Source of the DNA: a virus
Taxonomy: Duplodnaviria; Heunggongvirae; Uroviricota; Caudoviricetes
Reading direction: 5' to 3' (one strand)
Length of the DNA: 40,690 bases
Virus record (IMG/VR): IMGVR_UViG_2541047843_000008
Shown: positions 1,290-21,733 of the stretch, piece by piece
Numbering within the stretch: position 1 is the stretch's first letter
How the letters are laid out: every line of letters starts with the position of its first letter
Position numbers and translations under genes: made by a program
Notes under the pieces: model-generated
What the model was told of the DNA's origin: nothing
The model's database searches: none
What the model saw: only the letters and a program-made list of their open reading frames with translations

Positions 1290-1772
1290 CTATCTGGTCA
1301 AAGTGTCGTACTGTTTTTCGCAGACTCTTCCGGCTTCGGCTGCCCGGTCAGCATACTCTGCCAGTTGTCTGTTTCTCTCGAGAGATTTGCTGAGCACGTC
1401 GGCAAGCAAAACTCCGGTGTCTGCGGCTGACGACCCAGCGCCGACAATGGCGTTATACTGCCTGAGCTGCTCACGGATGGCAAAGAGTTGTTGCTGCAAC
1501 CGGCCAGCGCTAGCGGCAGCATCAAGAGCATCATTGCGCTCCTGGTCGATCCTCTGCTGAGCTTCACGTTCATTGGTCACTTTCTCCTGTTCGTAGTACT
1601 GACGAACTTTGTCTTCTTCGGCTTTGCGGTCTTCTTCCGCCTGAGCATACCCGGCATCGTACTGGCGACTGCCGTGTATATTCCAGGCAACCACTCCTGA
1701 TATGACCAGAACAGCAAGCACTGCCACGATAAGAAACTGTTTCCAGTATGCTTTTACGAATGCCCAGATCAT
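1290..1772 (-). CDS. Rz-like i-spanin (lysis protein)
   Basis: N-terminal TM segment then charged coiled-coil; last gene of lysis cassette; contains embedded out-of-frame lipoprotein ORF. Confidence 0.65.
1298..1573 (-). CDS. Rz1-like o-spanin lipoprotein embedded in Rz (true start probably an internal Met near 1534)
   Basis: Lipobox LALAGCS in alternate frame fully inside Rz; Pro-rich mature part. Confidence 0.5.
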   Translation of the reverse strand: MNVKLSRGSTRSAMMLLMLPLALAGCSNNSLPSVSSSGSITPLSALGRQPQTPEFCLPTCSANLSRETDNWQSMLTGQPKPEESAKNSTTL

Positions 1773-2398
1773 ACCGCCAGCACCTTACTGGCAGTGATGT
1801 ACCGCGCTCGCCGGTCGTCGATGCCGTTCCGGCCACCATTGATAATCAGAGTTACACGTGCAATATCGCCGGTATACTTCATGCATCCTTTGCTGGCGAA
1901 GAACCACGCCGCGCTACGAGCCGCATATCCGTCCTGCGCCAGCAGTTCAGGGCTCTCCAGCAGGTCCACTTTCAGGCCGTTTCCGCAATCACGATAGTTA
2001 TTCAAACCGGTAATCTGGATAAGTCCGCGGCCACGGTAATTCCAGCCATCGCCGGGGGCATTGTTCCCCATGCGTTTGCTGTATACCAGATTTGCGATCG
2101 CGCGCTGGCGCTCAAGTGGCAATGGTGGTTCACCAGCACGGCGCCCCAGTGCATTAGCCTGCCCCTGAGTGAGACGCCCAGCCCGAACGAAGTTAGCCAG
2201 TCCGCTGACACTGTAGTTGAAATTCTCCTGCAACCTGGTGAAGCCCCCAGACTCATGCCCGACTTGAGCAATAAACATTGCCTGATCTTCTGCTTTGCTG
2301 ATACCAAACTCTTTCATCGCAGAAGTTATATGCGAGAACCAGCGTGCGGCCAGTGCCTCGCTGATACCAGCAGCTCGCTGGAATTGTTTAATCTCCAT
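1769..2398 (-). CDS. Endolysin, glycoside hydrolase family 19 (chitinase-like lysozyme)
   Basis: GH19-type motifs QVGHESGGF and [15 protein letters not shown]; start taken at internal ATG (MEIKQF...) overlapping the upstream gene end. Confidence 0.8.
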
Positions 2399-2696
2399 GT
2401 TTAGACCTCGATACTTTAAAAATTTGAACGACGTTACCGCGCGTTTTAATAACCGCAGCCAGCATGACAGCGTTGATAATGACCTCAGATAAATCCACAG
2501 CCATTGGCGTACGTAACCAGATTGCATAGGCGACTCGAACAGGAATACTGGCCGCAGCAACAATCAGGAAATAAGCAAGCCATCCTCCCCACCTTCGATG
2601 TTGAGAGCCGTTACGCCGGAATGTGACAACGCGAATTGCTATGCCAGTGCAAATAACTGCATTAGTGATAAGCAAAAAAAACTCATGCGTTACCAT
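2388..2696 (-). CDS. Small two-TM membrane protein, putative holin/antiholin partner
   Basis: Two hydrophobic segments; sits between holin and endolysin with overlapping ends. Confidence 0.4.
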
Positions 2697-3087
2697 CGTC
2701 TTTTCTCCCCGGAATTAACTCGCGTGGATTATCGGAACGGTGATAGAGCCATATACCAATACGCACAGCGACAATTGCTGACACGAATGCGCCTGCAGAG
2801 AAAACAATCCCTTTTTCAAAAGAGTCCTGCGTGATGGTAGGGATCAGGCTGGCTATGCCGATAAGAATTGATGCTGCTGGTTTGTAAAAGAGAAGGCCGC
2901 AAAGAAAGCTGAGCATCGACAGGAGCACCCGGCGACGGATGGGGTACTCTACTGCAGAGGTAACAAAAATTACCGCCCCAGCCAAAGCCCCTAAAGCAAC
3001 CTCCGGAGGGACACCTGCAATAACTGCAGCAAGAGAACCAAAACTAAGCAACTGATTTAATTGCTCACTTGTTACTTGAGCAGACAT
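2683..3087 (-). CDS. Holin (three predicted TM segments, charged C-terminus)
   Basis: Three hydrophobic helices and basic/acidic C-terminal tail; first gene of lysis cassette. Confidence 0.6.
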   Translation of the reverse strand: MSAQVTSEQLNQLLSFGSLAAVIAGVPPEVALGALAGAVIFVTSAVEYPIRRRVLLSMLSFLCGLLFYKPAASILIGIASLIPTITQDSFEKGIVFSAGAFVSAIVAVRIGIWLYHRSDNPRELIPGRKDDGNA

Positions 3088-3366
3088 ACTTTCTCCTGTT
3101 TACTATCTATAAGCCAGTCAATTATTGATGACTAAACCCGCATAGTAAACCATATATGAATCATTATTGTTCCATATCATATATCTCAATAAAAGTACTA
3201 ATGATTTTACAGAACGAGCCAGCAGAGTGGGGGCAGTTGTACAGGAACCATAGACTTAATTTTGTATTTAATAATGCTATGGTGTAATAAACCTGAACAT
3301 GTATTTAAAATACGTACTGATTCATGATAGAATTCAAAGATAACTTTTCACCAACTCAGTTTTTGA

Positions 3367-3395
3367 TGCCCGCAATATTTTGCGGGCTTTTTTTT
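3367..3395 (+). terminator. Rho-independent terminator, plus-strand orientation only
   Basis: Stem GCCCGCAA / TTGCGGGC followed by 8 T on the plus strand; abuts the tailspike stop. Confidence 0.5.
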
Positions 3396-6300
3396 AACGT
3401 TCTTCCAGAGACTGAACCCGCTCTTTTATCTTATCCATTTCTCTGCGCTGCCATGCTGCCTCGATATAGAATAAGAGATCAGGTCTGACCCCCCATCTAG
3501 ATCCTGCTGGCGTTATTTCAACGCGCTCAATGATGTCTTCCATTACCATCACTGGATTATCATCCTCATCAACAATGATGCTCCCGTCATTATCAGTCAG
3601 CGGCATTTCCCTTTGGCCAGTAATGACGTCATCATATACTGCGGGATAATCGTCATAGCAAAGAAAGGCATAGCGGCATGTTGTGCTTTCTTCTTCCATG
3701 AGTCCGTGAGAAATAAGAACATCACGAAGTTGCTGCGCGATTACACCATGATGTATCCTCGCCCCTTCTTCCCCCTTTATAGCGACAGCGTTCAGCCATT
3801 TATAAGCGATATACCTGACGTCACCCCAGGCATCCAGCAATGCTTCGTCAGGAGAGACAGGCTCTGTCTTTAATGTTCCGTCACTGGTAACCACAGGATT
3901 GGAGCCAAGATAAACTGTCGAGAACCTGTTTCCCGGACCACCAAGAGCATTTACATTATCAAGATAAGGTTTAACATCTCCGTTCTCAAAAAGATGTTCG
4001 AGTGCGTTATATACCGCGCGACGTGGAGTACTGCTTCCGGAACCATGCAACGTTATCATTGCACCATCTGCTGAAGACGTTGTTTCACCGCCGCTAACGA
4101 TTAATCTCTGAGCGGTAACATCATCAGACGGTACTTTCTTCGCAATAATGGCGTAATTACCCTCAAGTTTGACTTCCGCGCGAACTTGTCCTGATGTACC
4201 TGCATGGACAGTCAGTGACTGGACGGCAACATCATCTGTGAAATCAACGGGTACAGGAACCGTCCTCACGCCTGACGTCGACATAAAAGTAGGAAGCGTT
4301 CTGTTAGGAGTGGCTCCGTAGACAAAATCCCTTGAAACAAATTCTTCCTGTTTAATTTTCACCCTGAAACAATACAAATCAGCCGGGTGACCATCGTGAA
4401 CATAAGGATATTTTCTGTTGTTATCCCCTATGCTCCATGGGTTTAGAAAGTCTTCCCCACCGAAAATGTAGTACAGCCAGTTGTCTTTGATACAAACTGA
4501 ACCAACACCAACCGCAGAGTTAACTATTCCGCCCTGATAAATCTGATCAGTAACATTAACCCACTCTACATTATCCAGACTCCACTCATTGACGTTAACT
4601 CTGGTCATAAATGTTCTTGGATAATTTCCTGCATAACGGTTATCAGGTTCTCCTCCTTCCCACTCACCAAATGCGCGCTCACTGCCAAAAATAATCAGCT
4701 CATCGCCAACTTTGGCAAAAGGAAGGTTTGAGTGATGAACATTATTTGGGAAGCGAAGAGAATTCCATGATGTACCTAAATCAGAGCTTCTGTGCAATGA
4801 ACTACCGGGTTGAGTACTTAATGTCCCCCTGGTCGTCAGATACAGAATGCCATCATAATATTTTACACATGGCTCAGATGCATTCGCCTCATATTCTACA
4901 GGTATGCGTCTGCGAACAAAGCTACCAGGAGAACCGAAAGCATCAGAGAAATAGAGTATCCCAAGCTCGCGTGGACCAATATCACCATTATGGTAGCCAA
5001 CAGCAAAACTGTTATCGCTAATCGTCGCAAAACTGTGAATCTCAGTAACAGGAGTGCTTCCGTCAACAAAAGAAGGAATAGTTCCAAGACTGGTTTTTCT
5101 CCATGGTGACGAGTGAAATGATGTGCCAAAACTCCAGTATCTACCCTCGTTATTCTGATCCACATCCTGGGTATTTTGCGTCGTAACTGTAAAGGTATTT
5201 TTATCAATAACAGTAGTCACCGTCATATTCCCGGTAACACCTGTAACACCAGAGTTTGAGAAGTTGACAAAATCACCAGCAAATAATCCGTGATCAGTAA
5301 TGCGAATATAAGCGACTTGCTGATTTGCTGCTTTCGTTATACCACCATAAACGCGAAGGCTGCGACTCATTGGGCGATCCCACAACTCTGCAACCTGCAG
5401 TTTATTTCCTCTCACGGTCCGCGTCTCAATTACAGCAAAAAGGCGATTTCTGACAACCCCCATACTCATGCAGTGATAGTTAACTGTGGGATAGTTTTCA
5501 TGTAAATCTGTAAGCCATTCCGGCGTTGTCCAGGTCTTCCCGTCATCTCCTGAGCGAACCCATGCAACATGGAGGTTATTTACACCATGGCGGTCTCCAG
5601 CCATAAAAGGCGCATAGATGACATTGTCATATACAAACGTTTTATCCTGCGTCCAGGCGTTGTACCACGGTGTATCTGTAATTTTAAATAACTCTCCCTG
5701 GATAAAATCTTCAGAAGCATAAAAAAGAGGCTGGCCCGGTATTCTCTCAAATAAAAAACGAGCATTTTTAAATCGACTGACATCCGGAAGAGTTGATACT
5801 TTAAAAGTAAGCCCTAATCCGTCAATTTTATAACCTGGAGATGAGGCTTCAAGGCACGCGCTTATTGCAGTGGAATCGTCATTTATACCATCACCAACAG
5901 CTCCAAAATCTTTGGGGCTAATAGCATCACGCATTTTATCCTGGAACGTTCGGTACACAGCCCCAGAACCATACTGAATAAACCAACCAAAACCACCAAC
6001 AACCCCGGCGATTGCAGCATCGACATAATTACGCATTGAGCGATTATTTACAGCGTCCTGCTCAAGTGATGGATCTGCAAGGTTAGAAATTTTGTTTTGC
6101 TTTGCATCGTAATATTTTGCAAGCAAAGATGGTTTCATCAATGCACGTCTGAACCACCCAAAACATTGCTGGATCAGCATCGTCAGGTAGTCAAAAGCAT
6201 CTTCATGCACTTCGGGGAAAAATTTTCCCTGATTGCGAAGGTCTGTCTCCTGCACTACATCAAGCACACGATCTATCGTAATTCGCCATCCAGCAGCAAG

Positions 6301-6513
6301 CGGAGACGGAAGAACAACAGAACCGCCACTATAAGTGCCCGCCCCAGTTACCGTATAACCGGTATCCAGAACCAATTCTGTTACGTTCCCGTTCAGGTCA
6401 GACACCTGAACAACCAGGTCGGATTTTTTGAAAATACGGAAGGTATACGGAAATGATGTCGTAACGCCGTTACCTGTGTATTCGTTGTGGTCAACTTCGG
6501 TTGAGACCGTCAT
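3394..6513 (-). CDS. Tailspike/tail fibre: T7 gp17-like N-terminal anchor, depolymerase domain with sialidase-type Asp-boxes (candidate endosialidase), C-terminal intramolecular chaperone (S74-like) domain
   Basis: N-terminal ~120 aa with gp17-like pattern; DFGAVGDGINDDS; Asp-boxes SGDDGKTW and SSDLGTSW; C-terminal VTSDGTLKTEP...HHGVIAQQ chaperone-like region. Confidence 0.85.
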   Translation of the reverse strand: MTVSTEVDHNEYTGNGVTTSFPYTFRIFKKSDLVVQVSDLNGNVTELVLDTGYTVTGAGTYSGGSVVLPSPLAAGWRITIDRVLDVVQETDLRNQGKFFPEVHEDAFDYLTMLIQQCFGWFRRALMKPSLLAKYYDAKQNKISNLADPSLEQDAVNNRSMRNYVDAAIAGVVGGFGWFIQYGSGAVYRTFQDKMRDAISPKDFGAVGDGINDDSTAISACLEASSPGYKIDGLGLTFKVSTLPDVSRFKNARFLFERIPGQPLFYASEDFIQGELFKITDTPWYNAWTQDKTFVYDNVIYAPFMAGDRHGVNNLHVAWVRSGDDGKTWTTPEWLTDLHENYPTVNYHCMSMGVVRNRLFAVIETRTVRGNKLQVAELWDRPMSRSLRVYGGITKAANQQVAYIRITDHGLFAGDFVNFSNSGVTGVTGNMTVTTVIDKNTFTVTTQNTQDVDQNNEGRYWSFGTSFHSSPWRKTSLGTIPSFVDGSTPVTEIHSFATISDNSFAVGYHNGDIGPRELGILYFSDAFGSPGSFVRRRIPVEYEANASEPCVKYYDGILYLTTRGTLSTQPGSSLHRSSDLGTSWNSLRFPNNVHHSNLPFAKVGDELIIFGSERAFGEWEGGEPDNRYAGNYPRTFMTRVNVNEWSLDNVEWVNVTDQIYQGGIVNSAVGVGSVCIKDNWLYYIFGGEDFLNPWSIGDNNRKYPYVHDGHPADLYCFRVKIKQEEFVSRDFVYGATPNRTLPTFMSTSGVRTVPVPVDFTDDVAVQSLTVHAGTSGQVRAEVKLEGNYAIIAKKVPSDDVTAQRLIVSGGETTSSADGAMITLHGSGSSTPRRAVYNALEHLFENGDVKPYLDNVNALGGPGNRFSTVYLGSNPVVTSDGTLKTEPVSPDEALLDAWGDVRYIAYKWLNAVAIKGEEGARIHHGVIAQQLRDVLISHGLMEEESTTCRYAFLCYDDYPAVYDDVITGQREMPLTDNDGSIIVDEDDNPVMVMEDIIERVEITPAGSRWGVRPDLLFYIEAAWQRREMDKIKERVQSLEER

Positions 6514-6617
6514 GTTAAATCTCCAGATAGTCGCAGCACCCGTTGCGCCGCATATCTGGTTATTCTATTACCTGAAAAACCACATATGGATAGATAACCC
6601 ATAAATACGAAAAGATA

Positions 6618-6632
6618 TTACCTTTCAGGTGA
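6618..6632. promoter_or_regulatory. Operator-like palindrome variant TTACCTTTCAGGTGA
   Basis: One-mismatch copy of the recurring TTACCT-N3-AGGTAA palindrome, between the tailspike start and a plus-strand moron. Confidence 0.4.
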
Positions 6633-6669: not shown

Positions 6670-6689
6670 TACTGTATATTTATACAGTT
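6670..6689. promoter_or_regulatory. LexA (SOS) box upstream of the small antirepressor-like gene
   Basis: TACTGTATATTTATACAGTT fits CTGT-N8-ACAG with AT-rich spacer; 20-40 nt upstream of the ATG candidates at 6695 and 6710. Confidence 0.6.
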
Positions 6690-6709: not shown

Positions 6710-6967
6710 ATGCAGCAGTATCACTATCCACTGGAAGACGGATTTACCGAAAGGATTCACACGCCGGGAGGCGTCAGGTCACTGGTGGAGGGATCGCACT
6801 TGATGAAATTACTCCGGGATCTCGATAAGGATGGATTTAATGTCGATGGCCCACTTGCCGAACTGACTGCACTGATTAACTACGTCACCAGCTCACAGAT
6901 GTCTATGCAGGATCTGCAAACACATCTCGACTATTGTGCCGAACAATTACGAAAACAAACCAGATAA
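6710..6967 (+). CDS. Small antirepressor-like protein: stand-alone paralog of the C-terminal domain of the neighbouring antirepressor (Tum-like candidate); alternative start 6695
   Basis: About 80 aa align with the C-terminus of the 7285..7941 product (e.g. [36 protein letters not shown]); GGAG 9 nt upstream of ATG. Confidence 0.5.
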   Translation: MQQYHYPLEDGFTERIHTPGGVRSLVEGSHLMKLLRDLDKDGFNVDGPLAELTALINYVTSSQMSMQDLQTHLDYCAEQLRKQTR

Positions 6968-6998
6968 GGTTTGCAATTACCAAGTGGAGTGCTTATAT

Positions 6999-7013
6999 TT
7001 ACCTTTTCGGTAA
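6999..7013. promoter_or_regulatory. Operator-like palindrome TTACCTTTTCGGTAA
   Basis: Copy of recurring TTACC-N5-GGTAA palindrome downstream of the small ant-like gene. Confidence 0.45.
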
Positions 7014-7104
7014 ATTTACATCGCACTCCTCTTGTGCCATAGTAATCGGGCACTGGCAAAATCCAGTGCCGGGATTGGTCTCCCGGATTACTAAGTGGCG
7101 CATA

Positions 7105-7127
7105 CCACGCCAGACGTGGTTTTTTTA
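7105..7127 (+). terminator. Rho-independent terminator after the small antirepressor-like gene
   Basis: Stem CCACG / CGTGG with 5-nt loop followed by 8 T. Confidence 0.5.
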
Positions 7128-7284
7128 TGCGTATAGCACAGTCATGCCAGAATTATGGTGGGCTGAATGGGGGTCCGAAAGGACGCCGGTACCACTTAGG
7201 CCGGTAAGACCAACTCCGTTCAGTTCACCACCATCTGATTGGTCTCAGCGGTGGTGATGTAATTCGCTAAGTGGAGACGCCATC

Positions 7285-7941
7285 ATGAACGCTCAACTCA
7301 TCCCCGTATTCAACGGCACTATATCTAACGAAACAGCCCTACTTTGTAATGCCCGCGATCTGCACGCTTTTTTAGGTGTTAAAAAGGTGTTTGCAGCATG
7401 GATTACAAATCGCATATCAGAATACGAATTCATTGAAAATCAAGACTATATTTTGCTTTCCAATTTGGGAAAGCAAACATCTGGTAGAGGCGGCCACAAC
7501 CGCAAAGAGTACCACCTCACCCTTGATACAGCCAAAGAGCTGGCGATGGTCGAGCGTAACGAAAAAGGTCGCCAGGTGCGACGCTACTTCATTGAATGCG
7601 AGAAACGTTTAAGACAACAAGAAACAAAAGTGGAGAAGGTCTTGTCAGGCTTCATGCCCGCCATAATGGAGGCGATCAAGCTGGAAGACAAAAAAGAATA
7701 CAGCGCCCCACTGAAGCCCGGCTACCGCAGCCTGATTCATTCGCCGTCTGGTGTTCTCGGCCTGACGGAGAACTCACTGCTGATGAATCTGCTGAACCAG
7801 TTACAGGACGACGGGCACGACGTATCGGGCGCGGCGGCGGAGCTGACCACCATGTTCTGCTACATCGTCGGTGTGAGCAAATGCCTGCGTGATATCCAGA
7901 CCCACGCGGAGTACATCAACGACAAGGCAGGGTTCTTCTGA
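7285..7941 (+). CDS. Antirepressor-like protein (N-terminal Ant-type domain plus C-terminal domain shared with 6710..6967)
   Basis: N-terminus resembles phage antirepressor N-terminal domains as recalled; SD GGAGA upstream; C-terminal paralogy seen directly. Confidence 0.6.
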
Positions 7942-8013: not shown

Positions 8014-8028
8014 TTACCTTAAAGGTAA
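8014..8028. promoter_or_regulatory. Operator palindrome TTACCTTAAAGGTAA upstream of the two-gene cassette
   Basis: Perfect TTACCT-N3-AGGTAA palindrome 43 nt upstream of the ATG at 8071. Confidence 0.5.
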
Positions 8029-8070: not shown

Positions 8071-8397
8071 ATGACAAAACTTGGATTCGTGATGAGAGGT
8101 CCGGTAAGAAGCGGAACTCATGCAAAGCGTAGCAAGAGTCGTATTTTTACTGGTAAGGTTGTAGCACGTAAATCAGCTATTGGCTCGTTCAATAGTGAAA
8201 ATGCGGCATTGCGCCATATTTTTATCAGCACAAAGCCAAGAGCATCCGCTGATGTGCATACAATGTCTATTCCTATCACAAAGAATATCAAGCGGATAAA
8301 AAAGCTCTCATCTGCAGAATCAAAAGAGATATCTTTCCGCCAGCTTAACTCATTAGAAACGCATATGAAGGAAGAGGAATTCGATGTTTTTGAGTGA
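8071..8397 (+). CDS. Hypothetical basic protein, first gene of unassigned two-gene cassette
   Basis: ATG with GGAG SD; K/R/S-rich N-terminus; AT-rich moron-like composition. Confidence 0.5.
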   Translation: MTKLGFVMRGPVRSGTHAKRSKSRIFTGKVVARKSAIGSFNSENAALRHIFISTKPRASADVHTMSIPITKNIKRIKKLSSAESKEISFRQLNSLETHMKEEEFDVFE

Positions 8398-8896
8398 GTA
8401 TAGCGGGAAGGTTATACCTACTGGTGAGTTTAAAACTGATGACTTTCTGATTTCGCTAAAAGATGCTTTTAAACAACACTGGCGTCATGGTCATCATCCT
8501 GATCTGGGAAAAGATACTCTTTTTGAAAGACCAGACGAAGTATTAGGCTTCCATCTCAGAAAGGTTCATGTCAATATTGGTGAATATGCATCATATTCAT
8601 ACTCATGTACTGAACAGTGTTGGGATGAGTGGTCATATGGATTGATTGATGAACAAGGAAATTACAGGCCAAAACCAACCAGTAACGCATATCTCATATA
8701 TGCAGTCAATGAAATAAGAGATGCAGCCTTACTAGCTTATTGGGACCCGCCCGCACACACCAAAGCTAACGCAAAAGTTTGGATGGATTCCGTATTGAAT
8801 TTCACAAAATTATTTCATGAACGAACGAATACAGCTCCACTTAGTAGAAATGTTTATCCGTGGGATTATTCGTACAAATCCAAAAAGCCTGCATAG
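8384..8896 (+). CDS. Hypothetical protein, second gene of cassette (His-rich segment HWRHGHHPD)
   Basis: ORF overlaps upstream gene end by 14 nt (translational coupling); no recognisable family. Confidence 0.5.
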   Translation: MFLSEYSGKVIPTGEFKTDDFLISLKDAFKQHWRHGHHPDLGKDTLFERPDEVLGFHLRKVHVNIGEYASYSYSCTEQCWDEWSYGLIDEQGNYRPKPTSNAYLIYAVNEIRDAALLAYWDPPAHTKANAKVWMDSVLNFTKLFHERTNTAPLSRNVYPWDYSYKSKKPA

Positions 8897-8977
8897 TAGT
8901 TTTTTATGGACGAAACAAAAGTCAGTGCTACACTCATTGACGCCACATTGAGGTGGCTTATAGATGGAAATGTCACA

Positions 8978-9139
8978 ATGAAAAAAGCATTTGCTGCACT
9001 GTTCGTTTTGTTGTCTCTGGTAGCTTCAACTCAGGCCTTTGCCGGTCGTTGTCAGCACGACAGCGACACTGCTGCTGACGGCTCACGCTGCGGTGGGCGT
9101 TCTGCGGATTCCCGCCCAGGCGGCGGTGGCATTCGTTAA
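8978..9139 (+). CDS. Small secreted Cys-containing peptide (signal peptide MKKAFAALFVLLSLVASTQAFA)
   Basis: Internal ATG begins a canonical signal peptide; about 30-aa mature part with 2 Cys and a Gly-rich tail. Confidence 0.4.
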   Translation: MKKAFAALFVLLSLVASTQAFAGRCQHDSDTAADGSRCGGRSADSRPGGGGIR

Positions 9140-9663: not shown

Positions 9664-12138
9664 TTATTGCGGAGTGACATCCTGTGGTCGCCACCAGTAT
9701 GTCTGGTTAAACTCTTTCTTCGAACGTTGCTCCATTTTACGCAAATAACCTGGTGAAAAATACTCCTGCATCTGGTTAAAGATCATGTGATCGAGAGCCG
9801 CCTTTAAGTACCAGAGATTCGCACCTGGCATCAGACCTTTCCCCAGCTTAACCAGATCACCACCAGTCTGCTCATTCTTCCCTTCCACAGCATTTAACGG
9901 TATGCCCTGAGCAATCTTCACTACGTCATCAACCAGACCAGCTACCGGGCCAAGCATCGACGCCAGCGCGCCGCTTCCGTACCTAGTGTGATCTGACAAT
10001 AAAAAGTCACCGTAAAGGCCAAGACCACCACCTTTCAGTAGAGCACCAAGCCAAAATTTAGCAGCATCTTCTCCTGTCATCTCGCGAGGATTACGACCAG
10101 ACGCAAGGTCGTTAAGTTGCTGCGACAAAGCGCCAAGAATGGTCGTACTGGCAATAAACGTCGCAATATATGCCGCACGCCCACCAGCCGACGGCATACC
10201 CATAGCGCGTGACCAGTGACGCATAACCACCGAGATAGGGAACGATTTAAACAGGAAAACACTTCTCGTTAATTCACCTTTCCATGTTCCACGCTGAATA
10301 CCAGAACCGGTTATCAGTTGCTCACGTGCACCCGGTGTAATAACAGCCATATCAACTTCTTCAGTTACGGCACCGAGCAGTTTACGCATTGCCTCAAATT
10401 TCACGCGTTCAGGCTCACCAAGATGTTTAACTGCTGAATCAGGGATACGCATAATGCTTTCCGGTGTCAGCATCGTATTATTACCGTTCCCCCAGTCCTC
10501 CTGTTGCGCCAGCTTCCATACGCTCCAGTCTGTGTCAGTAATCCCTTTGCTTTTCAGGATACGAAAATCAGAATCATCGAGGCTACGAAGGTCTGGTGTC
10601 CGTGACACTACTTCTCCCAGGCTTCCCATCATGGTTACGCCATAGGCGCGCTTGTGCGCATCTGACCATGCTGTAAGCCCACTGGCACGCATTACCGCCG
10701 TTGCAGCCCAACGAGACACAGACGGCCCCATATTATCCATCGCCCAGCGGTTAACGCTGCCAAGTAGAGATTCCATCGCCAGACCAGCGCGGCGCGCCCG
10801 CGCAAGTTCTGTACGGTTCGTTGGGTCCATAGCTTCAAGCTGGTTGCGGAATAACTGGTTCATTGGAAGGTTGGTAACCTTCGCAGACAGATACATGGTT
10901 CCAAGATCAGAGAACGATGACAGCAACGCGGATCCGAGTCTGCTGGCAACCAGCCAGTTGCGGATATTGTCAGACCATCGCGCGATGTGCGGATTCGCTA
11001 CAGGCTGTGTCTTTCCGGAAATAAAGTTGTACAGATTCTCTGTGTTGTTCGCCAGCCGCTCGACTTTACCGGTTTTACTCGGGTTAGCTGTTGCCGTTTC
11101 TGCCTTCACCTGATCAAGAAGAGAGCGGAAAACATGATCGGGGTTTGGGCCATATGTTTCCACCAGTGCAATATCTTTACTGATACCTTCCAGGTGACCG
11201 ACCATGATTTCCCATAGAGAGCGATCGCCATAAAGTTGCTGATATTGCAGATAGGAATCTGCATCTTTGAAATGTATCTGTCGTGATGCATTACCCCGGT
11301 TAGCACGTGCGCCGGAAATTCGCATTCCGGTATCAGTAAGCTTATTCAGCCCACCAGTAGCGATCGTGTTATAAGCCTCTCCAAGAAATGCAGACAACTC
11401 GGCATCGTTCATCAGTTGTCCATCGACTCGGGTATAATATTTGCGATCCAGCTTACCTATAACATCGCTAACCCACTTATCCTTTGATACCGCCCCAACC
11501 TTTTCCATAGAATGATGTTGAGGGAGCCCCCAGTTTTCGAGATAGCCAATGTCCCCACCAGCATCATTAAACCGGCGGCGCAGTAGCTCTGTCACTTCTC
11601 TCCACGCCTTAGCACCTTTTCTTGCTTTAGCATTGCCAGTATTTTGCCCTCGCATTTCATATACCAGGTCACGCACGCCAGCTTCATCTTCAAACAGGCC
11701 AAAAAAGCGAGGATCAACTGCTTCAAATGCCTCCTGCAATTGACTCAATGCATAATCACGAGTGGCTTTTGTTCTGGATTCAACAGAGAGGAAATTCGAT
11801 TTACCGTCTGCATTAAAAGCAATAGTACGGTTAAGAGCGCCAAGTTTCCCATCAGCCCCTTGATAGCTATTGATAAATTTATCCAATCTCTGACGTGCGG
11901 CTATAGTGAGGGCCACACGACGTTTCTTTAATGCCGCTTCTCGCTGTAATTCTTCAGATGCCAATTGTGCTGCTCGATATAGCCGCTCTGATTCGGAAAG
12001 TTGTCGCCACGACATCGGGTCATCACGAGCAATGGAGCGCATATTTCGATAAATGCGGTCTTCAATGTTCTGTATTTCTCGCGCCGTTAACATGCGCTGC
12101 GCCGCCTGCTGGACCGCTTGTATACATTCCTGTCTCAT
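9664..12138 (-). CDS. Internal virion/ejection protein (large, T7 gp15/gp16 position)
   Basis: 824 aa, translationally coupled in a run of large genes between the tail tubular genes and the tailspike. Confidence 0.65.
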   Translation of the reverse strand: MRQECIQAVQQAAQRMLTAREIQNIEDRIYRNMRSIARDDPMSWRQLSESERLYRAAQLASEELQREAALKKRRVALTIAARQRLDKFINSYQGADGKLGALNRTIAFNADGKSNFLSVESRTKATRDYALSQLQEAFEAVDPRFFGLFEDEAGVRDLVYEMRGQNTGNAKARKGAKAWREVTELLRRRFNDAGGDIGYLENWGLPQHHSMEKVGAVSKDKWVSDVIGKLDRKYYTRVDGQLMNDAELSAFLGEAYNTIATGGLNKLTDTGMRISGARANRGNASRQIHFKDADSYLQYQQLYGDRSLWEIMVGHLEGISKDIALVETYGPNPDHVFRSLLDQVKAETATANPSKTGKVERLANNTENLYNFISGKTQPVANPHIARWSDNIRNWLVASRLGSALLSSFSDLGTMYLSAKVTNLPMNQLFRNQLEAMDPTNRTELARARRAGLAMESLLGSVNRWAMDNMGPSVSRWAATAVMRASGLTAWSDAHKRAYGVTMMGSLGEVVSRTPDLRSLDDSDFRILKSKGITDTDWSVWKLAQQEDWGNGNNTMLTPESIMRIPDSAVKHLGEPERVKFEAMRKLLGAVTEEVDMAVITPGAREQLITGSGIQRGTWKGELTRSVFLFKSFPISVVMRHWSRAMGMPSAGGRAAYIATFIASTTILGALSQQLNDLASGRNPREMTGEDAAKFWLGALLKGGGLGLYGDFLLSDHTRYGSGALASMLGPVAGLVDDVVKIAQGIPLNAVEGKNEQTGGDLVKLGKGLMPGANLWYLKAALDHMIFNQMQEYFSPGYLRKMEQRSKKEFNQTYWWRPQDVTPQ

Positions 12139-12143
12139 TTAAT

Positions 12144-13946
12144 TTAACCTCTCAAGAAACACGCCACAGCGACATCAAACAGGCTGGAATCCTGTATTGC
12201 CTGCTCACTTTCCCTGTTCGCTTCATCCAGTACTTCACGCGCACTGCGCGATTGTGGATTACCATCATCATCCAGCACGGTGATTATCATGTCCGGAGAT
12301 TCAAGCAGCGAGTCTTCAGCTATACGCAGATCAATATCTCCTGCCGGATCTGCCATCATTTTTTGTTCTGTCTGTTGCAATATCTTACCGGGCTCAAAAG
12401 GAGCTACTTCGTCTGGCGTCCTGACCTCTGCTGTTTTATAGAATGAAACAGCCTGAGCATTAAGTTCACTTTCTGCCTGCTGTCGTCGTGCCAGTTCTGC
12501 TCGAGCTTCAAAAAACTGACCGCCAGGCTCGTGCGGTACCAACGCGTTACGGGAAAACTCCAGGCGTTCTTGTGCCTGCCGGATTCGTTGATCAATATCG
12601 CGAAGTCTGGCCTGTTTATCTGATCGAGCACGAGACAAAGCTTTACCGCTACCGGCTGGATCTTCTGCAAGAATTTGTGCACGCTGTTCAGTGAGATTTT
12701 CAATAATTCGTTGGCTATTAGCGATTTCAGACTGGTAAACCTGTCTATCTCCACGCGGCAAAAGCTGCGCGGCCTGTTCTTCAAGCAACCGATTTTCTAT
12801 AGCGCGCGCCGTTATTCCATCATCTACAGATGACAGAGCCTCATTAACTGCCTGAGACAGCAGACTCTTGCGCCCAGGAATTTCACTGAAAGATGCAGAC
12901 TCAACAATGCTGGCAACGTCTACAGGTCTCCCCTGGCTAACATCAGACATAGCTTTTCGCAGAGCCTGAATGTGAGAATTACGCGAAAGCACGTTGATCG
13001 GCACGCCAGGAGCAATATCAATTTCAGCATGATGAGCGGCATTCGCCGCCAGTGCAGCATCGATATCAACTGGTGAAAAATTTGGTGTGCTTGTAGACTC
13101 GCCGCGAGAGTTAATAAATCTGCCGACACCACCAAACGCCACCCCAAGAACAGCATCAATAGCAATTGCCTGTCGATCCAACACATCATACTGGTTAGCC
13201 ATTTCGCTATAGCCACCATCACGAAGTGTTTTTGCAGTAAGCCCACGCTGTGCCATACCGAACGCAATATTTGTACCTGCGGCATAGGCAATATCTGGCG
13301 TTGCACGTACTGCTGTTGCTGCGGCGCGTCGCACTGAACTCTCACCCGTCCGTGCAAGCTGAGCCGCCACACCTTCCGCCAGCGCACCACCAGCACGTAA
13401 CCCGAGGCTCATAGGGATCAGTGTTCCGGCACCAGCAGTAATGCCCTGCACTAATCCCGCTTCCTGCGCCGTCCTGAAATCAACACCCTGTGCTGTCAGC
13501 CGTTCAAACTCAGAAAAACCCTGTAGCGAAGTTACCGCCGCTGCACCTCCGACAGGACCACCGAGCGTTGTACCGACAACAGCCTGCCCGCCCATATCGA
13601 ACAACCCATAAAGAACCTGCCCGGCGGTTCCGGTTGTCGCGGCATCAGGCGTCAGCCGCTTAACCTGCTGCTCTGCTAGTTTTCTCTGCTCAGCAATGTA
13701 TGAAACTGAAGTGTCATTGAGCGAGGTGTTTTCGTTAACAAACTGAGCAATCGGGGATACGATTTTATCCATCCCTGCCCATAGCAACTGATCTGGCTTT
13801 GCCACCAGCCCGGAGTACAAACCAGACAATGCCGCTCCTACAGCATTGTCGAAAAAACCAACATCGCTGTTAAAGCCAACTGGATTTGATGCTGCTTCGT
13901 CAAGCTGCTGATTCTGGTTTACTGGATTAAGGCCAAAGTAACTCAT
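12144..13946 (-). CDS. Internal virion/ejection protein
   Basis: 600 aa, Ala/Gly-rich N-terminal half and coiled-coil C-terminal half; same operon position. Confidence 0.6.
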   Translation of the reverse strand: MSYFGLNPVNQNQQLDEAASNPVGFNSDVGFFDNAVGAALSGLYSGLVAKPDQLLWAGMDKIVSPIAQFVNENTSLNDTSVSYIAEQRKLAEQQVKRLTPDAATTGTAGQVLYGLFDMGGQAVVGTTLGGPVGGAAAVTSLQGFSEFERLTAQGVDFRTAQEAGLVQGITAGAGTLIPMSLGLRAGGALAEGVAAQLARTGESSVRRAAATAVRATPDIAYAAGTNIAFGMAQRGLTAKTLRDGGYSEMANQYDVLDRQAIAIDAVLGVAFGGVGRFINSRGESTSTPNFSPVDIDAALAANAAHHAEIDIAPGVPINVLSRNSHIQALRKAMSDVSQGRPVDVASIVESASFSEIPGRKSLLSQAVNEALSSVDDGITARAIENRLLEEQAAQLLPRGDRQVYQSEIANSQRIIENLTEQRAQILAEDPAGSGKALSRARSDKQARLRDIDQRIRQAQERLEFSRNALVPHEPGGQFFEARAELARRQQAESELNAQAVSFYKTAEVRTPDEVAPFEPGKILQQTEQKMMADPAGDIDLRIAEDSLLESPDMIITVLDDDGNPQSRSAREVLDEANRESEQAIQDSSLFDVAVACFLRG

Positions 13947-16456
13947 TGCGGAATATCTCCGGAGAATCTCTGACGCTTCTGTGTCAGATCAAGAACAACA
14001 GGAGAACCATCATCTTTCAGCAGATAACCAGTACCAAGTTTCACCAGGTACTGACTATCGCCGTAACTTTGCAAACCATACTGACCAGGCGGTGTTTTTA
14101 TCCCAGAGCCGACAACTTGTTCATTCCAAGTCTGATTAACCTGCTTATCGAATTGCTCTGCAGACATTCCCCACGGCAAAAGGACATTCCCCATTCCGTT
14201 ATAGTCATGCACGCCACCTGTAGCTACGTTAACAGCCTGTTTCCAGACATCATTGTCAATTTCGCCTGATACCACGCCTTTTTTCGCCATCACACCAGCG
14301 TAATAATCCTTTGCGATCTCGTATGCCATTGATGCCCCCTGAGCGTCACCAGCAAATGCATCCTTCACCATGTCAGAAAACTCAAGGCGAAGATCAGCAT
14401 CTTTAGGCATCGGAATACCTTTCGCATCATCAGTACCTTTACGAGCCGCCGCGCCAGCAAGAATTGTCTGCGCAGCGGTTTCAGGAGACACGGAAACATC
14501 CGGATTAAACCAGTTTTTTTCTGCCAAAATACCACCTGGCTTATCCATCAGTATCCCGGCAACGGCAGCAGATGGAGCGTTGGCACTGATCTGCTGTAGT
14601 GCTGACATATACACCTGCCCACCACCAGTGCTCTGCCTGATGGTATCGAGATATGCTGCCTGTTGGGAAACGGGCGCATCACGAAAGAAAACACCGATCT
14701 GATTGGCCTCGTCTTTGGAAAAGAACGTCAGTGGAGTGCCATATGACTTAGCAAGGTCACTGACCTGAGCAGCACGCAAGGCAACGCTCTGTCCAAAGTT
14801 ATCCTTATTGCTCATGTCGATAGGCTTTGTCTGTCCGGCGGCAAGAGAGAACTGTACAGGATCAGCCTGTCGCTGCTTTATCACCTGACTTGCAGCCGAC
14901 ACAACGTTGTCATAAAGAGCGGCTCGTGCCGCATAACCCTCCCCTGTCTCACCAGTATCCGGGCGTAATTGCTCAACATATGCTGTAATGCTGCTTGTCG
15001 GCATGTTGCGGAAAGAGCCTATATACTGTCCGGCGATTTGCGTATTTCTGAACTCGGTATATCGCAGGTTTCCTTCTCTTACTCCATAAGCTGCAATAAA
15101 ATCAGCCTCACCAGGTGGGTTAGGAAATTCAACGCCACGCATATACGCAGCTGTCGCATCGCGAACCTGGCTGTCAATCATCGTTTTATATTCAGCCTGC
15201 TGCTGCCGACGCAGTTGATCCGCCTGTCGCATAAAACTTGCCTGCGCCTCAGGAGATGCCGCATCGAATGCTGCATTACCGGTATAGCGTTTGGTGTTGG
15301 TTGGAATTGTTGATAAACCAAGTGCTGCACTGACACCAGCAGTTAACTGCTGATCACTGTATGGCTGGCTACCGTTCTCATGATGGATAATGGCTGCACA
15401 AAGCGCCTTCAGGGTATCAGGATTAGATGCATCGAGAGGCTCATCAGCAGAAACGCCAAGTTGTTCGCACACTGCTTTGATATACGACATAGTGTCATTT
15501 TTATCAGCAGGCGGTGCCCAGCGATTAATTATCTCGCTGACGGTATCAATACCCTGCCTCTGATACGACATCAGGTTCCGCCCTAATGCACGAATCCCGT
15601 GTTCAGGTGTTTCGAATTTAGCAAATCGACCATCATCACCGGTCTGGCCTACCCACGGATTAGTTTTGCTGTATTCGAGATTTCCTGGGTTATTGTTGCG
15701 TATGCCACGGGCACGCTCGGAAGAGTCACTATCTGCTACAGCACGGCGAGCTCCAGCAGCAGTATCACTTAACTCGCCATTACTTTGGATGAATGCGGTC
15801 GCATTGTTTGCCGACCACTGGGACAATGCAGCATCAGCAACCTTCTCTTTAAACTCGATTTTCTTGGCCTGGATTTGCTCGTTGCTCCAGCCATGTGCAA
15901 CACCGTACTCCTCAATTTGCTGGAAAGTTTGTTTGTTAGCCAATACGTATGCGGCGTTGTCGCCATACAATGCTGCGGCATTTTTACCATTGTTCAGCAG
16001 TGTCGCCTGAAACTGGCCTTCTTCGTAGGCATTAATTTGCCCTATCTCGTGTCGCCCGGCCTGCGTAGTGAACTGAATGCGCTGCTGCTGCGCCTGCTGC
16101 ATGAAAGCATTACGAGCCTGTTCATCCGGCAGCGACATAGCCAGTTGTTCGACCTGAGCATCAAACTGCTGCGTATACTCATGGCCTTTTCCAATAGCAT
16201 TTTTCCCTTTCAGGTTAAGCAATCCTGTTTCAGGATTATTCAGCAGATCGCTGCTTATCTGACTGAGGTTAAGAGATGCCTCCTGAGCCAGAGCGATATT
16301 GGCACGCTGTTTTGCCTGCCCCAAAACATCAATTGCCTCTGTCCCTGCCCGAACAAAAGCATCACCAATACCTTGCTGAGAAAACGTCTGCAAGCCTGCT
16401 GACTGAACTCCACGACTCTCAACCTGACGTCCGGATACTGTTGGTACGACTGGCAT
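13943..16456 (-). CDS. Internal virion protein with a conserved-looking GIRNNNPGNLEY segment (possible cell-wall-active domain)
   Basis: Start at ATG 16456 overlapping upstream stop (TAATG), GGAGG SD; motif at about 15300-15750. Confidence 0.65.
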   Translation of the reverse strand: MPVVPTVSGRQVESRGVQSAGLQTFSQQGIGDAFVRAGTEAIDVLGQAKQRANIALAQEASLNLSQISSDLLNNPETGLLNLKGKNAIGKGHEYTQQFDAQVEQLAMSLPDEQARNAFMQQAQQQRIQFTTQAGRHEIGQINAYEEGQFQATLLNNGKNAAALYGDNAAYVLANKQTFQQIEEYGVAHGWSNEQIQAKKIEFKEKVADAALSQWSANNATAFIQSNGELSDTAAGARRAVADSDSSERARGIRNNNPGNLEYSKTNPWVGQTGDDGRFAKFETPEHGIRALGRNLMSYQRQGIDTVSEIINRWAPPADKNDTMSYIKAVCEQLGVSADEPLDASNPDTLKALCAAIIHHENGSQPYSDQQLTAGVSAALGLSTIPTNTKRYTGNAAFDAASPEAQASFMRQADQLRRQQQAEYKTMIDSQVRDATAAYMRGVEFPNPPGEADFIAAYGVREGNLRYTEFRNTQIAGQYIGSFRNMPTSSITAYVEQLRPDTGETGEGYAARAALYDNVVSAASQVIKQRQADPVQFSLAAGQTKPIDMSNKDNFGQSVALRAAQVSDLAKSYGTPLTFFSKDEANQIGVFFRDAPVSQQAAYLDTIRQSTGGGQVYMSALQQISANAPSAAVAGILMDKPGGILAEKNWFNPDVSVSPETAAQTILAGAAARKGTDDAKGIPMPKDADLRLEFSDMVKDAFAGDAQGASMAYEIAKDYYAGVMAKKGVVSGEIDNDVWKQAVNVATGGVHDYNGMGNVLLPWGMSAEQFDKQVNQTWNEQVVGSGIKTPPGQYGLQSYGDSQYLVKLGTGYLLKDDGSPVVLDLTQKRQRFSGDIPQ

Positions 16457-17001
16457 TATAATCCTCCGGGTAATCTGGTTCCTGCTGCTGCCCCGATTGG
16501 CGCAGGAGTGCTTTGAGTAAACGGACTCCACGTCCCACCAAACATCTGGTACGCACCGTATGCCTTCAGAGGCGCAGTGAGCAATGTTGTTGCTGCTCCC
16601 ACATTCCCCTGTTTACGGGCTGAACTGGCTTCTGCTTTATAGTTGGCAGCCTGAACCTGATAACCGTAAGCCTCGCGTTGCGCGTTATTCACCGTCGTCA
16701 GCGAATCAAGAGCGCCAAACTGGGCAGTGTCGCCAAATATATCCAGCGCGTTACCGGTAGATAAATCGGCGCCGGTCGCCCCCATTGTCGCCGCCTGTGT
16801 ACCAAGCCGCTGTCGGGTCTCTCTGCGCCGTTGCTCAGCTTCAGCGTTACCTCTGTTTATTGCATCATTTGCCTGAGCTGTGGCTATATCTGCGTTCGCT
16901 TCTGCAACCTTCGAGACATACTTTCCCTGTTGGTACTGGGTGTATGCCTGAATGCCACTCATGGCGAGCATTGCGCCACCAGCAATAACCGGATCGCACA
17001 T
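16456..17001 (-). CDS. Internal virion protein, T7 gp14-like
   Basis: About 180 aa, starts MC..., Ala/Gln-rich, C-terminal APIGAAAGT end similar to the T7 gp14 pattern as recalled. Confidence 0.55.
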   Translation of the reverse strand: MCDPVIAGGAMLAMSGIQAYTQYQQGKYVSKVAEANADIATAQANDAINRGNAEAEQRRRETRQRLGTQAATMGATGADLSTGNALDIFGDTAQFGALDSLTTVNNAQREAYGYQVQAANYKAEASSARKQGNVGAATTLLTAPLKAYGAYQMFGGTWSPFTQSTPAPIGAAAGTRLPGGL

Positions 17002-17465
17002 TATTTTCTCTCCATGTGAAATCTGTGGAAATTAAGACCAAGAGCACCATAAGGCGCGGCTTCTTCAAGCCTGAATCCAAGCCAGTGCAGCCATGCTTTG
17101 GCAACATGGTTTCGCTCGTCGACGTAGTTTTCCAGGCGCGGATAAACTGCCAGCATCTGCTGCAATACAGGGAGGCAGTGGCGAAGAAATGTCTTCTGAT
17201 ATTTTTCAATACGGCTGGTTCCTACCAGCCAGGGCGTACCATTGCCACCGATCATTGACGCCGGAGATACGCCAAACATGGTTACCAGTTCTCCGTTCGC
17301 AAATCCTGACCAGGCCATAGTCGCAGTACGCAGACCAACACGCAGCGCATCTTCGGTAGTCATCAGTGATACCGCATACAGTTCGTCAATATCAGCCTGA
17401 CGAACATCCGGCAAAATCATCTGAAGATGCTCTTCGGTTGCGGGAATAATTTGAACATCGACCAT
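17001..17465 (-). CDS. Virion-associated protein (T7 gp13 position), function unknown
   Basis: 154 aa, translationally coupled between the tail tubular B-like and gp14-like genes. Confidence 0.4.
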   Translation of the reverse strand: MVDVQIIPATEEHLQMILPDVRQADIDELYAVSLMTTEDALRVGLRTATMAWSGFANGELVTMFGVSPASMIGGNGTPWLVGTSRIEKYQKTFLRHCLPVLQQMLAVYPRLENYVDERNHVAKAWLHWLGFRLEEAAPYGALGLNFHRFHMERK

Positions 17466-20864: not shown

Positions 20865-20880
20865 ATACACTCCTGCAATA

Positions 20881-20896
20881 AAGGGGCCGAAGCCCC
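20881..20896 (-). other. Intra-operon stem-loop (AGGGGC / GCCCCT, UUCG loop in the transcript) after head genes
   Basis: Perfect 6-bp GC stem with tetraloop followed by UUAUUG and then SD/ATG of the next gene. Confidence 0.45.
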
Positions 20897-20914
20897 TTGT
20901 CTGATCCGCGAGGC

Positions 20915-21259: not shown

Positions 21260-21260
21260 C

Positions 21261-21698: not shown

Positions 21699-21713
21699 CT
21701 TCTTTCTCCATTA

Positions 21714-21733
21714 GTGGGTCTGTTACGACCCAC
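21714..21733 (-). other. Stem-loop (GTGGGTC / GACCCAC) between capsid and next gene
   Basis: 7-bp inverted repeat with 6-nt loop, followed on the minus strand by GGAG and ATG. Confidence 0.4.

Follow-up and report, generated by a model that had tools for sequence, protein, structure and literature searches.

The phages epsilon15, phiV10 and SPC32H form a group of model podoviruses for structure, serotype conversion and reporter-phage diagnostics, of whose regulation the Rep-Ant switch alone has been studied. The late genes of well-studied phages are positively controlled, and regulatory factors are known to have sites inside sigma-70 promoters, as exemplified in lambda by the Q-binding element, which lies between -35 and -10, in T4 by the MotA box at -30, and by spacer operators of the MerR type. 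The GenBank record of epsilon15 (AY150271.2) carries protein_bind features labelled "repressor" upstream of TerS, gp3/portal, the tailspike gene and the gene that follows the replication module, as well as at PL. Rep of the SPC32H type is a tetramer with two pairs of DNA-binding domains and binds DNA in this tetrameric form (PMC9638917). In phage ZX5, Rep overproduction cut the holin and endolysin mRNA by more than 99.9%, in a paper that defines no operators (PMC9782041). Every late promoter of P1 carries a conserved inverted repeat bound by Lpa, the lpa gene itself being under a C1 operator and situated just upstream of the packaging genes (PMC10695390).

The window, meaning the whole stretch of 40,690 nucleotides that was analysed (IMG/VR record IMGVR_UViG_2541047843_000008), shares 96-99% identity across most of its length with the Escherichia phages ZX5, TL-2011b, HEMP4 and phiV10 (the ZX5 genome being 98-99% identical) and about 80% with Enterobacter phage Tyrion; because of its identity to those phages, it is regarded as a phiV10/epsilon15-like (Uetakevirus) prophage. 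The parts of its layout that matter here are as follows.

1290-3087, minus strand: lysis cassette (Pfam: holin, glycoside hydrolase 19, DUF2514), comprising the Rz-like gene (1290-1772), the endolysin gene (1769-2563) and the holin gene (2683-3087), all by Pfam
3394-6513, minus strand: tailspike gene
9664-25642, minus strand: portal-to-tail operon
about 26812-28877, minus strand: TerS/TerL
34390-34620, minus strand: cro-like gene, in the immunity region
34775-35359, plus strand: rep, in the immunity region, encoding the repressor, with full-length homology to SPC32H Rep (PDB 5D50)

The comparison of the window Rep with PDB 5D50 gave E = 3.5e-42 over the full length. The protein contains two HTH regions and is 43% identical to the epsilon15 repressor, with an invariant recognition helix, NLVNRW. 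An Rfam scan of the whole window returned tRNA, isrK and C4 only, and no family at any copy of the motif described below. The window further contains a P1-type C4 antisense RNA/antirepressor module, and it encodes PerC-like and AlpA-like proteins.

The palindrome TTACCT-N3-AGGTAA was matched 15 times in the window at two mismatches or fewer, against 0.8 expected, and TTACC and GGTAA are, as judged from the sequence, the two halves of the 15-bp Rep operator TTACC-N5-GGTAA. The operators are distributed as listed.

34657-34719: OR, three operators between the cro-like gene and rep, with no motif copy
35417-35431 and 35479-35493: two operators flanking PL (TTGACA-N17-AATTAT)
28880-28894 (TAACCACCGTGGTAA) and 28898-28912: tandem operators upstream of TerS, 18 bp apart
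6618-6632: TTACCTTTCAGGTGA, the distal full operator of the tailspike region, between the tailspike gene and a LexA-controlled small antirepressor gene
25733-25747: TTACCTTTCAGGTAA, the distal full operator of the portal region
32362-32376: TTACCTCTGAGGTAA, the proximal operator of the DUF1064 operon, covering the start site and the Shine-Dalgarno sequence of the DUF1064 gene
32424-32438: TTACCTAACAGGTAA, the distal operator of the DUF1064 operon, 62 bp from the proximal one
6999, 8014 and 34320: starts of the remaining operators

The rightward promoter TTGATT-N17-GAATAT holds one of the OR operators in its spacer. The epsilon15 features at 12-27, 2931-2947, 19895-19911 and 35906-35922 are orthologous to the window operators at 28898, 25733, 6618 and 32424, respectively, and thus mark the four places named in the first-pass annotation discussed next. 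A first-pass annotation of this DNA had pointed to a TTACC/GGTAA half-site next to a recurring sequence upstream of late operons; the location of the half-site was correct but its novelty was not, for it is half of the repressor operator already annotated in epsilon15, and this part of the composite is already known biology. The half-sites beside the motif are perfect 5-mers of the operator (A)TTACC-N5-GGTAA(T), an inverted repeat of 15-17 bp. The element AACCAC-CGT-GGTAA before TerS, which had been presented as a relative of the motif, turned out to be a degenerate operator of the tandem pair and not a motif copy, and epsilon15 12-27 is annotated 'repressor'; the pair lies between a terminator (28932-28949, minus strand) and TerS.

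The sequence recurring beside the half-sites, AACCACATAWG, was indeed found at 6578-6588, 25681-25691 and 32382-32392, exactly three times and always on the plus strand. The half-sites claimed for these copies are TTACC at 6568-6572, TTACC at 25671-25675 and GGTAA at 32372-32376, each exactly 5 nt from the motif, and each of the three has in addition a full operator 40-52 bp to its right. Enrichment over shuffled sequence was borne out, there being eight matches at one mismatch or fewer against 1.3 expected, a number that none of 100 shuffles reached. The combination TGGTT-N5-(TTACC/GGTAA) occurs five times (0.115 expected; at most two in 200 first-order Markov simulations); four of these are intergenic regulatory copies, and the fifth, at about 19477-19491 within a coding sequence, is probably due to chance. 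With a position weight matrix built solely from other phages and a threshold of 13 bits, the window yielded 10 hits, against 1.0 expected, at seven loci, all of them intergenic and four of them (3148, 6958, 34301 and 35460) additional to the three first listed.

3148-3161, minus strand: lysis copy, ATTCATATATGGTT, 21.6 bits
6578-6591, minus strand: tailspike copy, ATCCATATGTGGTT in the gene sense (AACCACATATG on the plus strand), 22.1 bits with the matrix from other phages
6958-6971, plus strand: antirepressor-promoter copy, AACCAGATAAGGTT, abutting the -35
25681-25694, minus strand: portal copy, AATCATATGTGGTT in the gene sense, 21.8 bits
32382-32395, minus strand: DUF1064-operon copy, TGTCTTATGTGGTT, in the promoter spacer
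34301-34314: copy after the cro terminator, AACCAGATTTGGTT, the best palindromic copy, with 0 mismatches
35460-35473, plus strand: PL copy, AACCAAATAAGCAT, of half strength, filling the promoter spacer

A Rep operator or half-site stands 5 nt away from six of the seven copies, the lysis copy being the exception. In the reverse direction, a matrix built from the window recovered the portal, tailspike, lysis, after-cro and ruvC sites of epsilon15, and in Tyrion the same five together with the antirepressor promoter and PL; the scans showed no motif at OR or upstream of TerS in the window, epsilon15 or Tyrion. The description of the motif as lying upstream of late entry points thus holds for the tailspike, the portal and also the lysis genes, which had been missed, but it is too narrow, since copies are found at the PL, after-cro and antirepressor promoters as well.

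When the window was set beside epsilon15, SPC32H, Tyrion, BUCT554 and Klebsiella phages (alignments A1 and A2) and beside about 80 related viral contigs, AACCACATAWG proved to be the stronger of two arms together with the AT-rich centre of a 14-bp palindrome that is imperfect, A[T/A][C/T]CATAT[G/A]TGGTT. Positions C4, T8, G11, G12, T13 and T14 are essentially invariant across 35 instances representing 33 distinct sequences. Tyrion contains a perfect palindrome, AACCATATATGGTT, the after-cro copy reads AACC[A/G]NAT[A/T]TGGTT in many contigs, and the stronger arm of the palindrome changes side between orthologous sites. Three consistent differences set the motif apart from the Rep operator: it has an invariant GGTT in place of GGTA, its centre is kept as ATAT/ATAA whereas that of the operator is free, and its arms are spaced as ACC-N6-GGT instead of ACC-N5-GGT. 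The motif is therefore a distinct element, and its interpretation as a degenerate or decayed Rep operator was rejected. Orthologous copies are kept in Salmonella, Enterobacter and Klebsiella relatives with diverged flanks; in six to seven phages, whose hosts span four genera, the intergenic DNA has diverged except for conserved islands formed by the motif, by GGTAAT and by the -10.

Several familiar identities were also considered and rejected. An invariant C or G at key positions is incompatible with the motif being a sigma-70 -35 or -10, nor is it an extended -10, and a by-eye comparison revealed no fit to DnaA box, CRP/FNR, sigma-54, PhoP, NrdR or MqsA-type sites. The 14-bp palindrome is not annotated in AY150271.2. 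Full-text literature searches for the motif and operator strings returned unrelated primers only, and nothing on the palindrome or its interlock with Rep half-sites was found in the accessible literature. The palindrome and the interlock are thus provisionally considered new, with the proviso that a published footprint might already explain the motif.

The position of the motif within promoters was evaluated with hexamers that are our own assignments among alternatives, chosen from sequence and conservation. Three late promoters, those of lysis, tailspike and portal, combine the best-scoring motif copies with a recognisable -10 and no -35 at 16-18 nt. At the tailspike, the core CATATnnGGTT of the motif is invariant in seven phages (alignment A2), as is GGTAAT, which contains the half-site (6568-6572, GGTAA in the gene sense); TGGTT together with this half-site has the 5-N5-5 format of an operator. 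The candidate -10, TAGAAT (6562-6567, minus strand), is conserved in the seven phages (TAAACT in BUCT554), and the assignment is a putative one. The -35 position reads TCCATA, which is unusable. A plus-strand promoter at this site, TAGATA-N17-GATATT, was discarded as it is not kept in other phages, and an inverted repeat of 6551-6561 with 6578-6588 is confined to E. coli phages.

Six phages share an almost unchanged block of about 28 nt that includes the portal copy (alignment A1), and the half-site of this copy (25671-25675) again reads GGTAA in the gene sense, 5 nt from the motif. The -10 assigned here, TAATTT, is weak, and a consensus scanner gave no hexamers at the portal promoter. At both tailspike and portal, the lack of a -35 follows from an invariant C in the position of the -35 G. 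A conserved promoter of opposite orientation, TTGACA (25712-25717)-N17-TACCTT, reads towards tRNA-Arg, and its -10 is overlapped by the distal operator of the portal region; GTCAA and its distance to this operator are invariant in six phages. The lysis copy is followed directly by a -10, TACTAT (3142-3147), and no Rep operator lies within about 250 bp of it in the window. Its orthologues at 24748 in epsilon15 and 24745 in Tyrion (again AACCATATATGGTT) are both followed by TATTGT, the epsilon15 copy having no adjoining half-site, and the -35 position in the window and its relatives reads ACAATA, GTAATT or ATTGCA.

The other four copies occur at promoters with usable -35 elements. The DUF1064-operon promoter consists of TTGATT (32399-32404), 3 nt, TGTCTTATGTGGTT and the -10 TTTAAT (32376-32381); cTATTGA, the 17-nt spacing and TGGTT are kept in four diverged sequence types of about 80 viral contigs. 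At PL, the motif fills the spacer between TTGACA (35451-35456) and AATTAT (35474-35479), Tyrion having AACCATATATGGAT at the same place and epsilon15 no copy there. The copy at 6958 abuts the -35 of TTGCAA (6971-6976)-N17-TATATT (6994-6999), a promoter serving the isrK/C4 RNA and a BRO-type antirepressor; a half-site, TTACC (6977-6981), and the operator at 6999-7013 follow, and the Tyrion orthologue is AACCACATAAGGTT. The copy at 34301 is 5 nt from the operator at 34320-34334 and overlaps a candidate -35, TTGATC (34297-34302, minus strand).

Three arrangements can accordingly be distinguished. In the first, a -35 is followed by 3 nt, the 14-mer and the -10 (PL and the DUF1064-operon promoter, lysis being alike but without a recognisable -35). 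In the second, the motif is followed by 5 nt (variable at the tailspike, conserved at the portal), GGTAA and the -10. In the third, the motif abuts or overlaps the -35, as in the after-cro (TTGATC) and isrK/C4-antirepressor (TTGCAA) promoters. Relative to the assigned -10, the motif centres lie at -19.5 for lysis, at -29.5 for tailspike and portal, and at about -41 for the copies over the -35. These centres, approximately -19.5, -29.5 and -41, differ by roughly one helical turn, a regularity that depends on the chosen hexamers and is to be read with caution. The proposal of a late or middle promoter/activator site can be kept insofar as the motif is a shared cis-regulatory element and the -35-less late promoters fit an activator; the restriction to late or middle promoters has to be given up.

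Our leading interpretation, held tentatively and somewhat short of even confidence, is that the composite may be a two-part promoter module in which a Rep half-site is joined to a palindrome for a second, dimeric phage regulator acting as a late activator. The two elements, the constant distance between them, their occurrence across the genome and their conservation are observed directly, and from these we infer the promoter hexamers, the direction of regulation and the identity of the protein involved. The palindrome would be read by a second dimeric regulator, most probably encoded by the phage and under the control of Rep. At the lysis, tailspike and portal promoters it would take the place of the -35 or spacer and recruit or position RNA polymerase, as Lpa does in P1, and Rep at the half-site or operator 5 bp away would block the same stretch in the lysogen and so exclude the second regulator. 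The weaker spacer copies at PL and the DUF1064-operon promoter would serve shut-off or autoregulation. As an activator of late promoters, the second regulator would compete or cooperate with Rep. A Rep-controlled positive factor acting on the motif is suggested by the -35-less late promoters and by the lysis promoter, which has no operator, yet whose transcripts are abolished by Rep overproduction in ZX5. A more specific version, in which the hybrid TGGTT-N5-GGTAA would constitute a distributed Uetakevirus switch with activator and repressor competing for 15 bp at each late promoter, is unlikely.

One candidate binder of the motif, by its position only, is the 112-aa product of the gene (29188-29523) that directly precedes TerS. 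It belongs to PHROG 536 (N15 gp46-like), annotated no further than 'transcriptional regulator', and its homologues are all named 'hypothetical', one of them being located in the early operon of a P2-like Yersinia phage. Sequence searches of this protein against Pfam, NCBIfam and PDB were negative; its AlphaFold model, of moderate confidence (pLDDT 68), has a beta-alpha-alpha N-terminus and matched no fold in PDB. No homologue of P1 Lpa was found in the window by tblastn, nothing scoring below E = 3, and the comparison of the 112-aa protein with Lpa gave E = 22.

Several points count against the activator and the second regulator: the varying register of the motif would suit a steric repressor at least as well, four of the seven copies belong to promoters whose -35 is usable, the window has no Lpa homologue, and the constant 5-bp gap to the Rep half-site speaks for a connection with Rep itself.

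The main rival, somewhat unlikely in our estimation, is that the palindrome is an auxiliary Rep operator with repression as its only function, one domain pair of the tetramer sitting on the canonical operator and the other on the palindrome or on TGGTT-N5-GGTAA, which overlaps the core promoter. Repression would thereby reach promoters that have their single full operator 50-62 bp upstream; a full operator at -60 to -80 could not repress alone. Rep binds DNA as a tetramer (PMC9638917) and the window Rep is homologous; the 5-nt gap to a Rep operator or half-site is constant in six of seven copies, the two centres are 19.5 bp apart, which is close to the 17-18 bp separating the tandem operators at OR and TerS, and TGGTT-N5-GGTAA has the operator format. 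The motif always lies over the -35 or the spacer, where a steric block would tolerate a variable register. This reading has difficulty, however, with the consistency of GGTT, the AT centre and the 6-nt spacing, since a weak operator should drift, and with the lysis copies, of which that in the window has neither operator nor half-site and that in epsilon15 no adjoining half-site. OR and TerS function without the motif. Moreover, the only alternative reading head of Rep, its second (C-terminal) HTH, has a poorly conserved recognition helix that varies among phages sharing the motif, and is disfavoured as its reader.

Improbable, though less readily set aside than what follows, is a site for the Cro-like protein as a lytic-phase repressor or modulator beside Rep sites, analogous to OM-OR of TP901-1, which sets a precedent for repressor and Cro-like sites in one operator (PMC7250872). 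This protein of 76 aa is encoded by the first gene of the rightward early promoter PR, and the window, epsilon15 and Tyrion, which share the motif, agree at 100% in its HTH; its recognition helix is unlike that of Rep and could read a different sequence, and the cro terminator is immediately followed by the best palindromic copy. Nevertheless, there is no copy at OR, where Cro must act, and in Psychrobacter phage pOW20-A a distant Cro is found beside ATACCT-N3-AGGTAT operators, which suggests that proteins of this kind read Rep-type operators. A purely repressive lytic-phase protein also cannot silence the operator-less lysis promoter in the lysogen. Apart from a small number of weak partial matches, homologues of the Cro-like protein and of Rep occur in this phage group and a single Psychrobacter phage only, so no independent lineage is available for co-variation of protein and motif.

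More doubtful still is the view that no dedicated factor is involved, the motif being core-promoter sequence of the -35 or spacer, a CA/TA/TG hinge for Rep looping between operators 50-62 bp apart, or a host site such as that of IHF. The motif does lie in the interval of an operator pair 62 bp apart at PL and at the DUF1064 promoter, and in that of an operator and a half-site at the tailspike (50 bp) and at the portal (61 bp); the epsilon15 record places IHF sites in the same intergenic regions, next to some of the repressor sites. Yet the AACC/GGTT arms are conserved and not the flexible centre alone, and spacer sequence is normally not conserved across genera. Sigma-70 hexamers are excluded by two invariant bases, a C where a -35 would have its G and a G where a -10 would have its T. 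Upon inspection, no IHF match (WATCAANNNNTTR) was seen among all motif copies, and the IHF features of epsilon15 adjoin the motif without covering it.

Leader-peptide control through the pentapeptides MWFFR and MWLNW, which the first-pass annotation had also entertained, can be practically discounted: both mini-ORFs exist as described (ATG TGG TTT TTC AGG TAA, 6585 to 6568 on the minus strand, and ATG TGG TTA AAT TGG TAA), but with the spacing fixed, a G at the variable position of the motif suffices to create them, the TAA of GGTAA supplying the stop at a constant distance. ATG is present in no more than 14 of the 35 instances (33 different sequences), ATA stands in its place in the tailspike copies of epsilon15, Tyrion and BUCT554, and there is no Shine-Dalgarno sequence. 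Given the likeliest -10, the motif probably lies upstream of the transcription start, and no terminator-like site was found between motif and gene starts.

Returning to the two-part module, a second element interlocked with a Rep half-site predicts where late transcripts start, which bases to mutate and a second DNA-binding protein, and the motif could improve the annotation of a very common class of enterobacterial prophages. The predicted starts are close to 6555 for the tailspike, 25658 for the portal operon and 3135 for lysis, these three being expected late, and close to 32371 for DUF1064. Were the activator reading true, it would represent an unrecognised late-gene activator in Uetakeviruses, that is, in epsilon15, phiV10, SPC32H and hundreds of enterobacterial prophages; were the auxiliary Rep site true instead, it would show a tetrameric repressor reaching core promoters from a distant operator.

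Among known systems, the Rep operators of epsilon15 and SPC32H (AY150271.2; Rep-Ant, PDB 5D50/5D4Z) consist of the same palindrome as those of the window, which encodes a homologous Rep. The places are shared too, with three copies at rep/cro-like and others at PL, at TerS, at the portal, at the tailspike and at the gene that follows replication, and a LexA-controlled small antirepressor lies by the tailspike gene in both. Annotation and accessible literature for epsilon15 and SPC32H cover the operator only, whereas the palindrome 5 bp away belongs to a different sequence class. OM-OR of TP901-1 (CI + MOR) resembles the composite in uniting an operator with sites of a second small HTH protein in a fixed and conserved topology (PMC7250872), but it is situated in the switch region and represses cI, whereas OR of the window lacks the motif, whose copies are scattered elsewhere in the genome. 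The Q, MotA and MerR systems have a factor site that replaces the -35 or lies between -35 and -10, as in the window; the latter, however, encodes no homologue of Q, MotA/AsiA or MerR, and its spacers are of the normal 16-17 bp. Finally, the window differs from P1 in having no Lpa homologue, in the sequence and length of the motif, in its varying register (-19.5 or -29.5), in carrying copies at early promoters, and in the absence of the motif upstream of TerS, the P1 element being present at every late promoter. Still, the late promoters of P1, with a -10, a symmetric '-22 region' and no -35 at each late unit, may be similar to those of the window as assigned here, and P1 (with lpa just upstream of pacA) and the window are alike in having a regulator gene, in the window a candidate one, before the packaging genes and a master repressor with dispersed operators.

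At the portal promoter (25664-25694), a block of approximately 28 nt around the motif, an imperfect 14-bp palindrome, was found to be nearly invariant in six phages and contains an inverted repeat of its own, TTAAATT-GGTAAT-AATTTAA. Three Klebsiella phages retain this regulatory block, with flanks that no longer align at the nucleotide level. A second promoter is directed away from the portal operon, into approximately 320 nt of non-coding DNA, with the following features in order:
25712 onward, plus strand: conserved promoter TTGACA-N17-TACCTT, its -10 element lying within an operator of the prophage repressor Rep
26070-26146, plus strand: tRNA-Arg(UCU), beyond the non-coding stretch
26076-26327, minus strand: ORF antisense to the tRNA, a "hypothetical protein" in TL-2011b
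26190-26225, plus strand: strong terminator past the tRNA
The epsilon15 record has an RNase III site annotated in the stretch equivalent to 25712-26225. The antisense ORF is probably spurious.

The tailspike promoter likewise holds an inverted repeat enclosing a GGTAAT half-site, in this case matching at 10 of 11 positions (CATATCTGGTT at 6551-6561 and AACCACATATG at 6578-6588), which is limited to E. coli phages, being absent in epsilon15, Tyrion, and the Klebsiella relatives. The 5' leader (6520-6550, minus strand) carries a conserved GC-rich hairpin, GGCGCAACGGGTGCTGC in the window and GCGCGCCGGGCGC in epsilon15, situated between the putative -10 element and the ribosome-binding site in all seven aligned phages.

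Two kinds of antirepressor determinant lie nearby, the second being a module of the P1 immI type (6971-7941, plus strand):
6672-6687: perfect LexA box CTGTATATTTATACAG, overlapping the promoter of the 85-aa ORF
6710-6967, plus strand: 85-aa ORF, PHROG 450, with a weak antirepressor match
from 6971, plus strand: Rep-controlled promoter of the immI-type module, TTGCAA-N17-TATATT
7050-7126, plus strand: isrK-like RNA, its 3' end formed by a terminator
7151-7235: C4 antisense RNA, between the isrK-like RNA and the antirepressor gene
7285-7941, plus strand: BRO/KilAC-type antirepressor gene
The LexA box is kept in seven phages, and the 85-aa ORF is orthologous in position to Ant of SPC32H, a small LexA-controlled antirepressor annotated as "ant" at that place in the SPC32H record. 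Together with the immI-type module, this ORF thus gives one prophage two different, adjacent antirepressor systems.

Directly upstream of TerS, a strong intrinsic terminator (28932-28949, minus strand) is followed by two Rep operators, which a seven-codon ORF (MVLLPQR) overlaps. Given this terminator and the lack of any recognisable promoter upstream of TerS (28877-28960, minus strand), TerS and TerL would have to be reached by read-through from the DUF1064 operon, and their expression would need some form of antitermination.

Further features concern the early region and an additional Rep operator, at which no copy of the motif accompanies the operator or its genes:
8014-8028: perfect Rep operator TTACCTTAAAGGTAA, upstream of three plus-strand ORFs
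8071-9139, plus strand: three ORFs of 108, 170, and 77 aa, function not known, flanked by the antirepressor on one side and the tail operon on the other
34060-34290, minus strand: first ORF beyond the post-cro promoter, beginning with a Cys-rich segment (CRHGH...CVEC)
This Cys-rich segment is fused to, or overlaps, the replication-initiation gene; the C-terminal part matches the primosomal protein DnaT.

Rep itself (34775-35359, plus strand) has two HTH regions: residues 21-61 form a YdaS/Cro-like HTH, and residues 106-147 an HTH_3 with a much less conserved recognition helix. The HTH_3 falls within the segment of SPC32H Rep that was crystallised as its domain for tetramerisation and Ant binding. 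The distant marine Psychrobacter phage pOW20-A encodes a Cro homologue with 49% identity over the HTH, and three copies of a related operator, ATACCT-N3-AGGTAT (L133, the pOW20-A sequence, 1395-1465), are arranged around a rightward promoter as in the window. The operator family is thus much older than the Uetakevirus genus.
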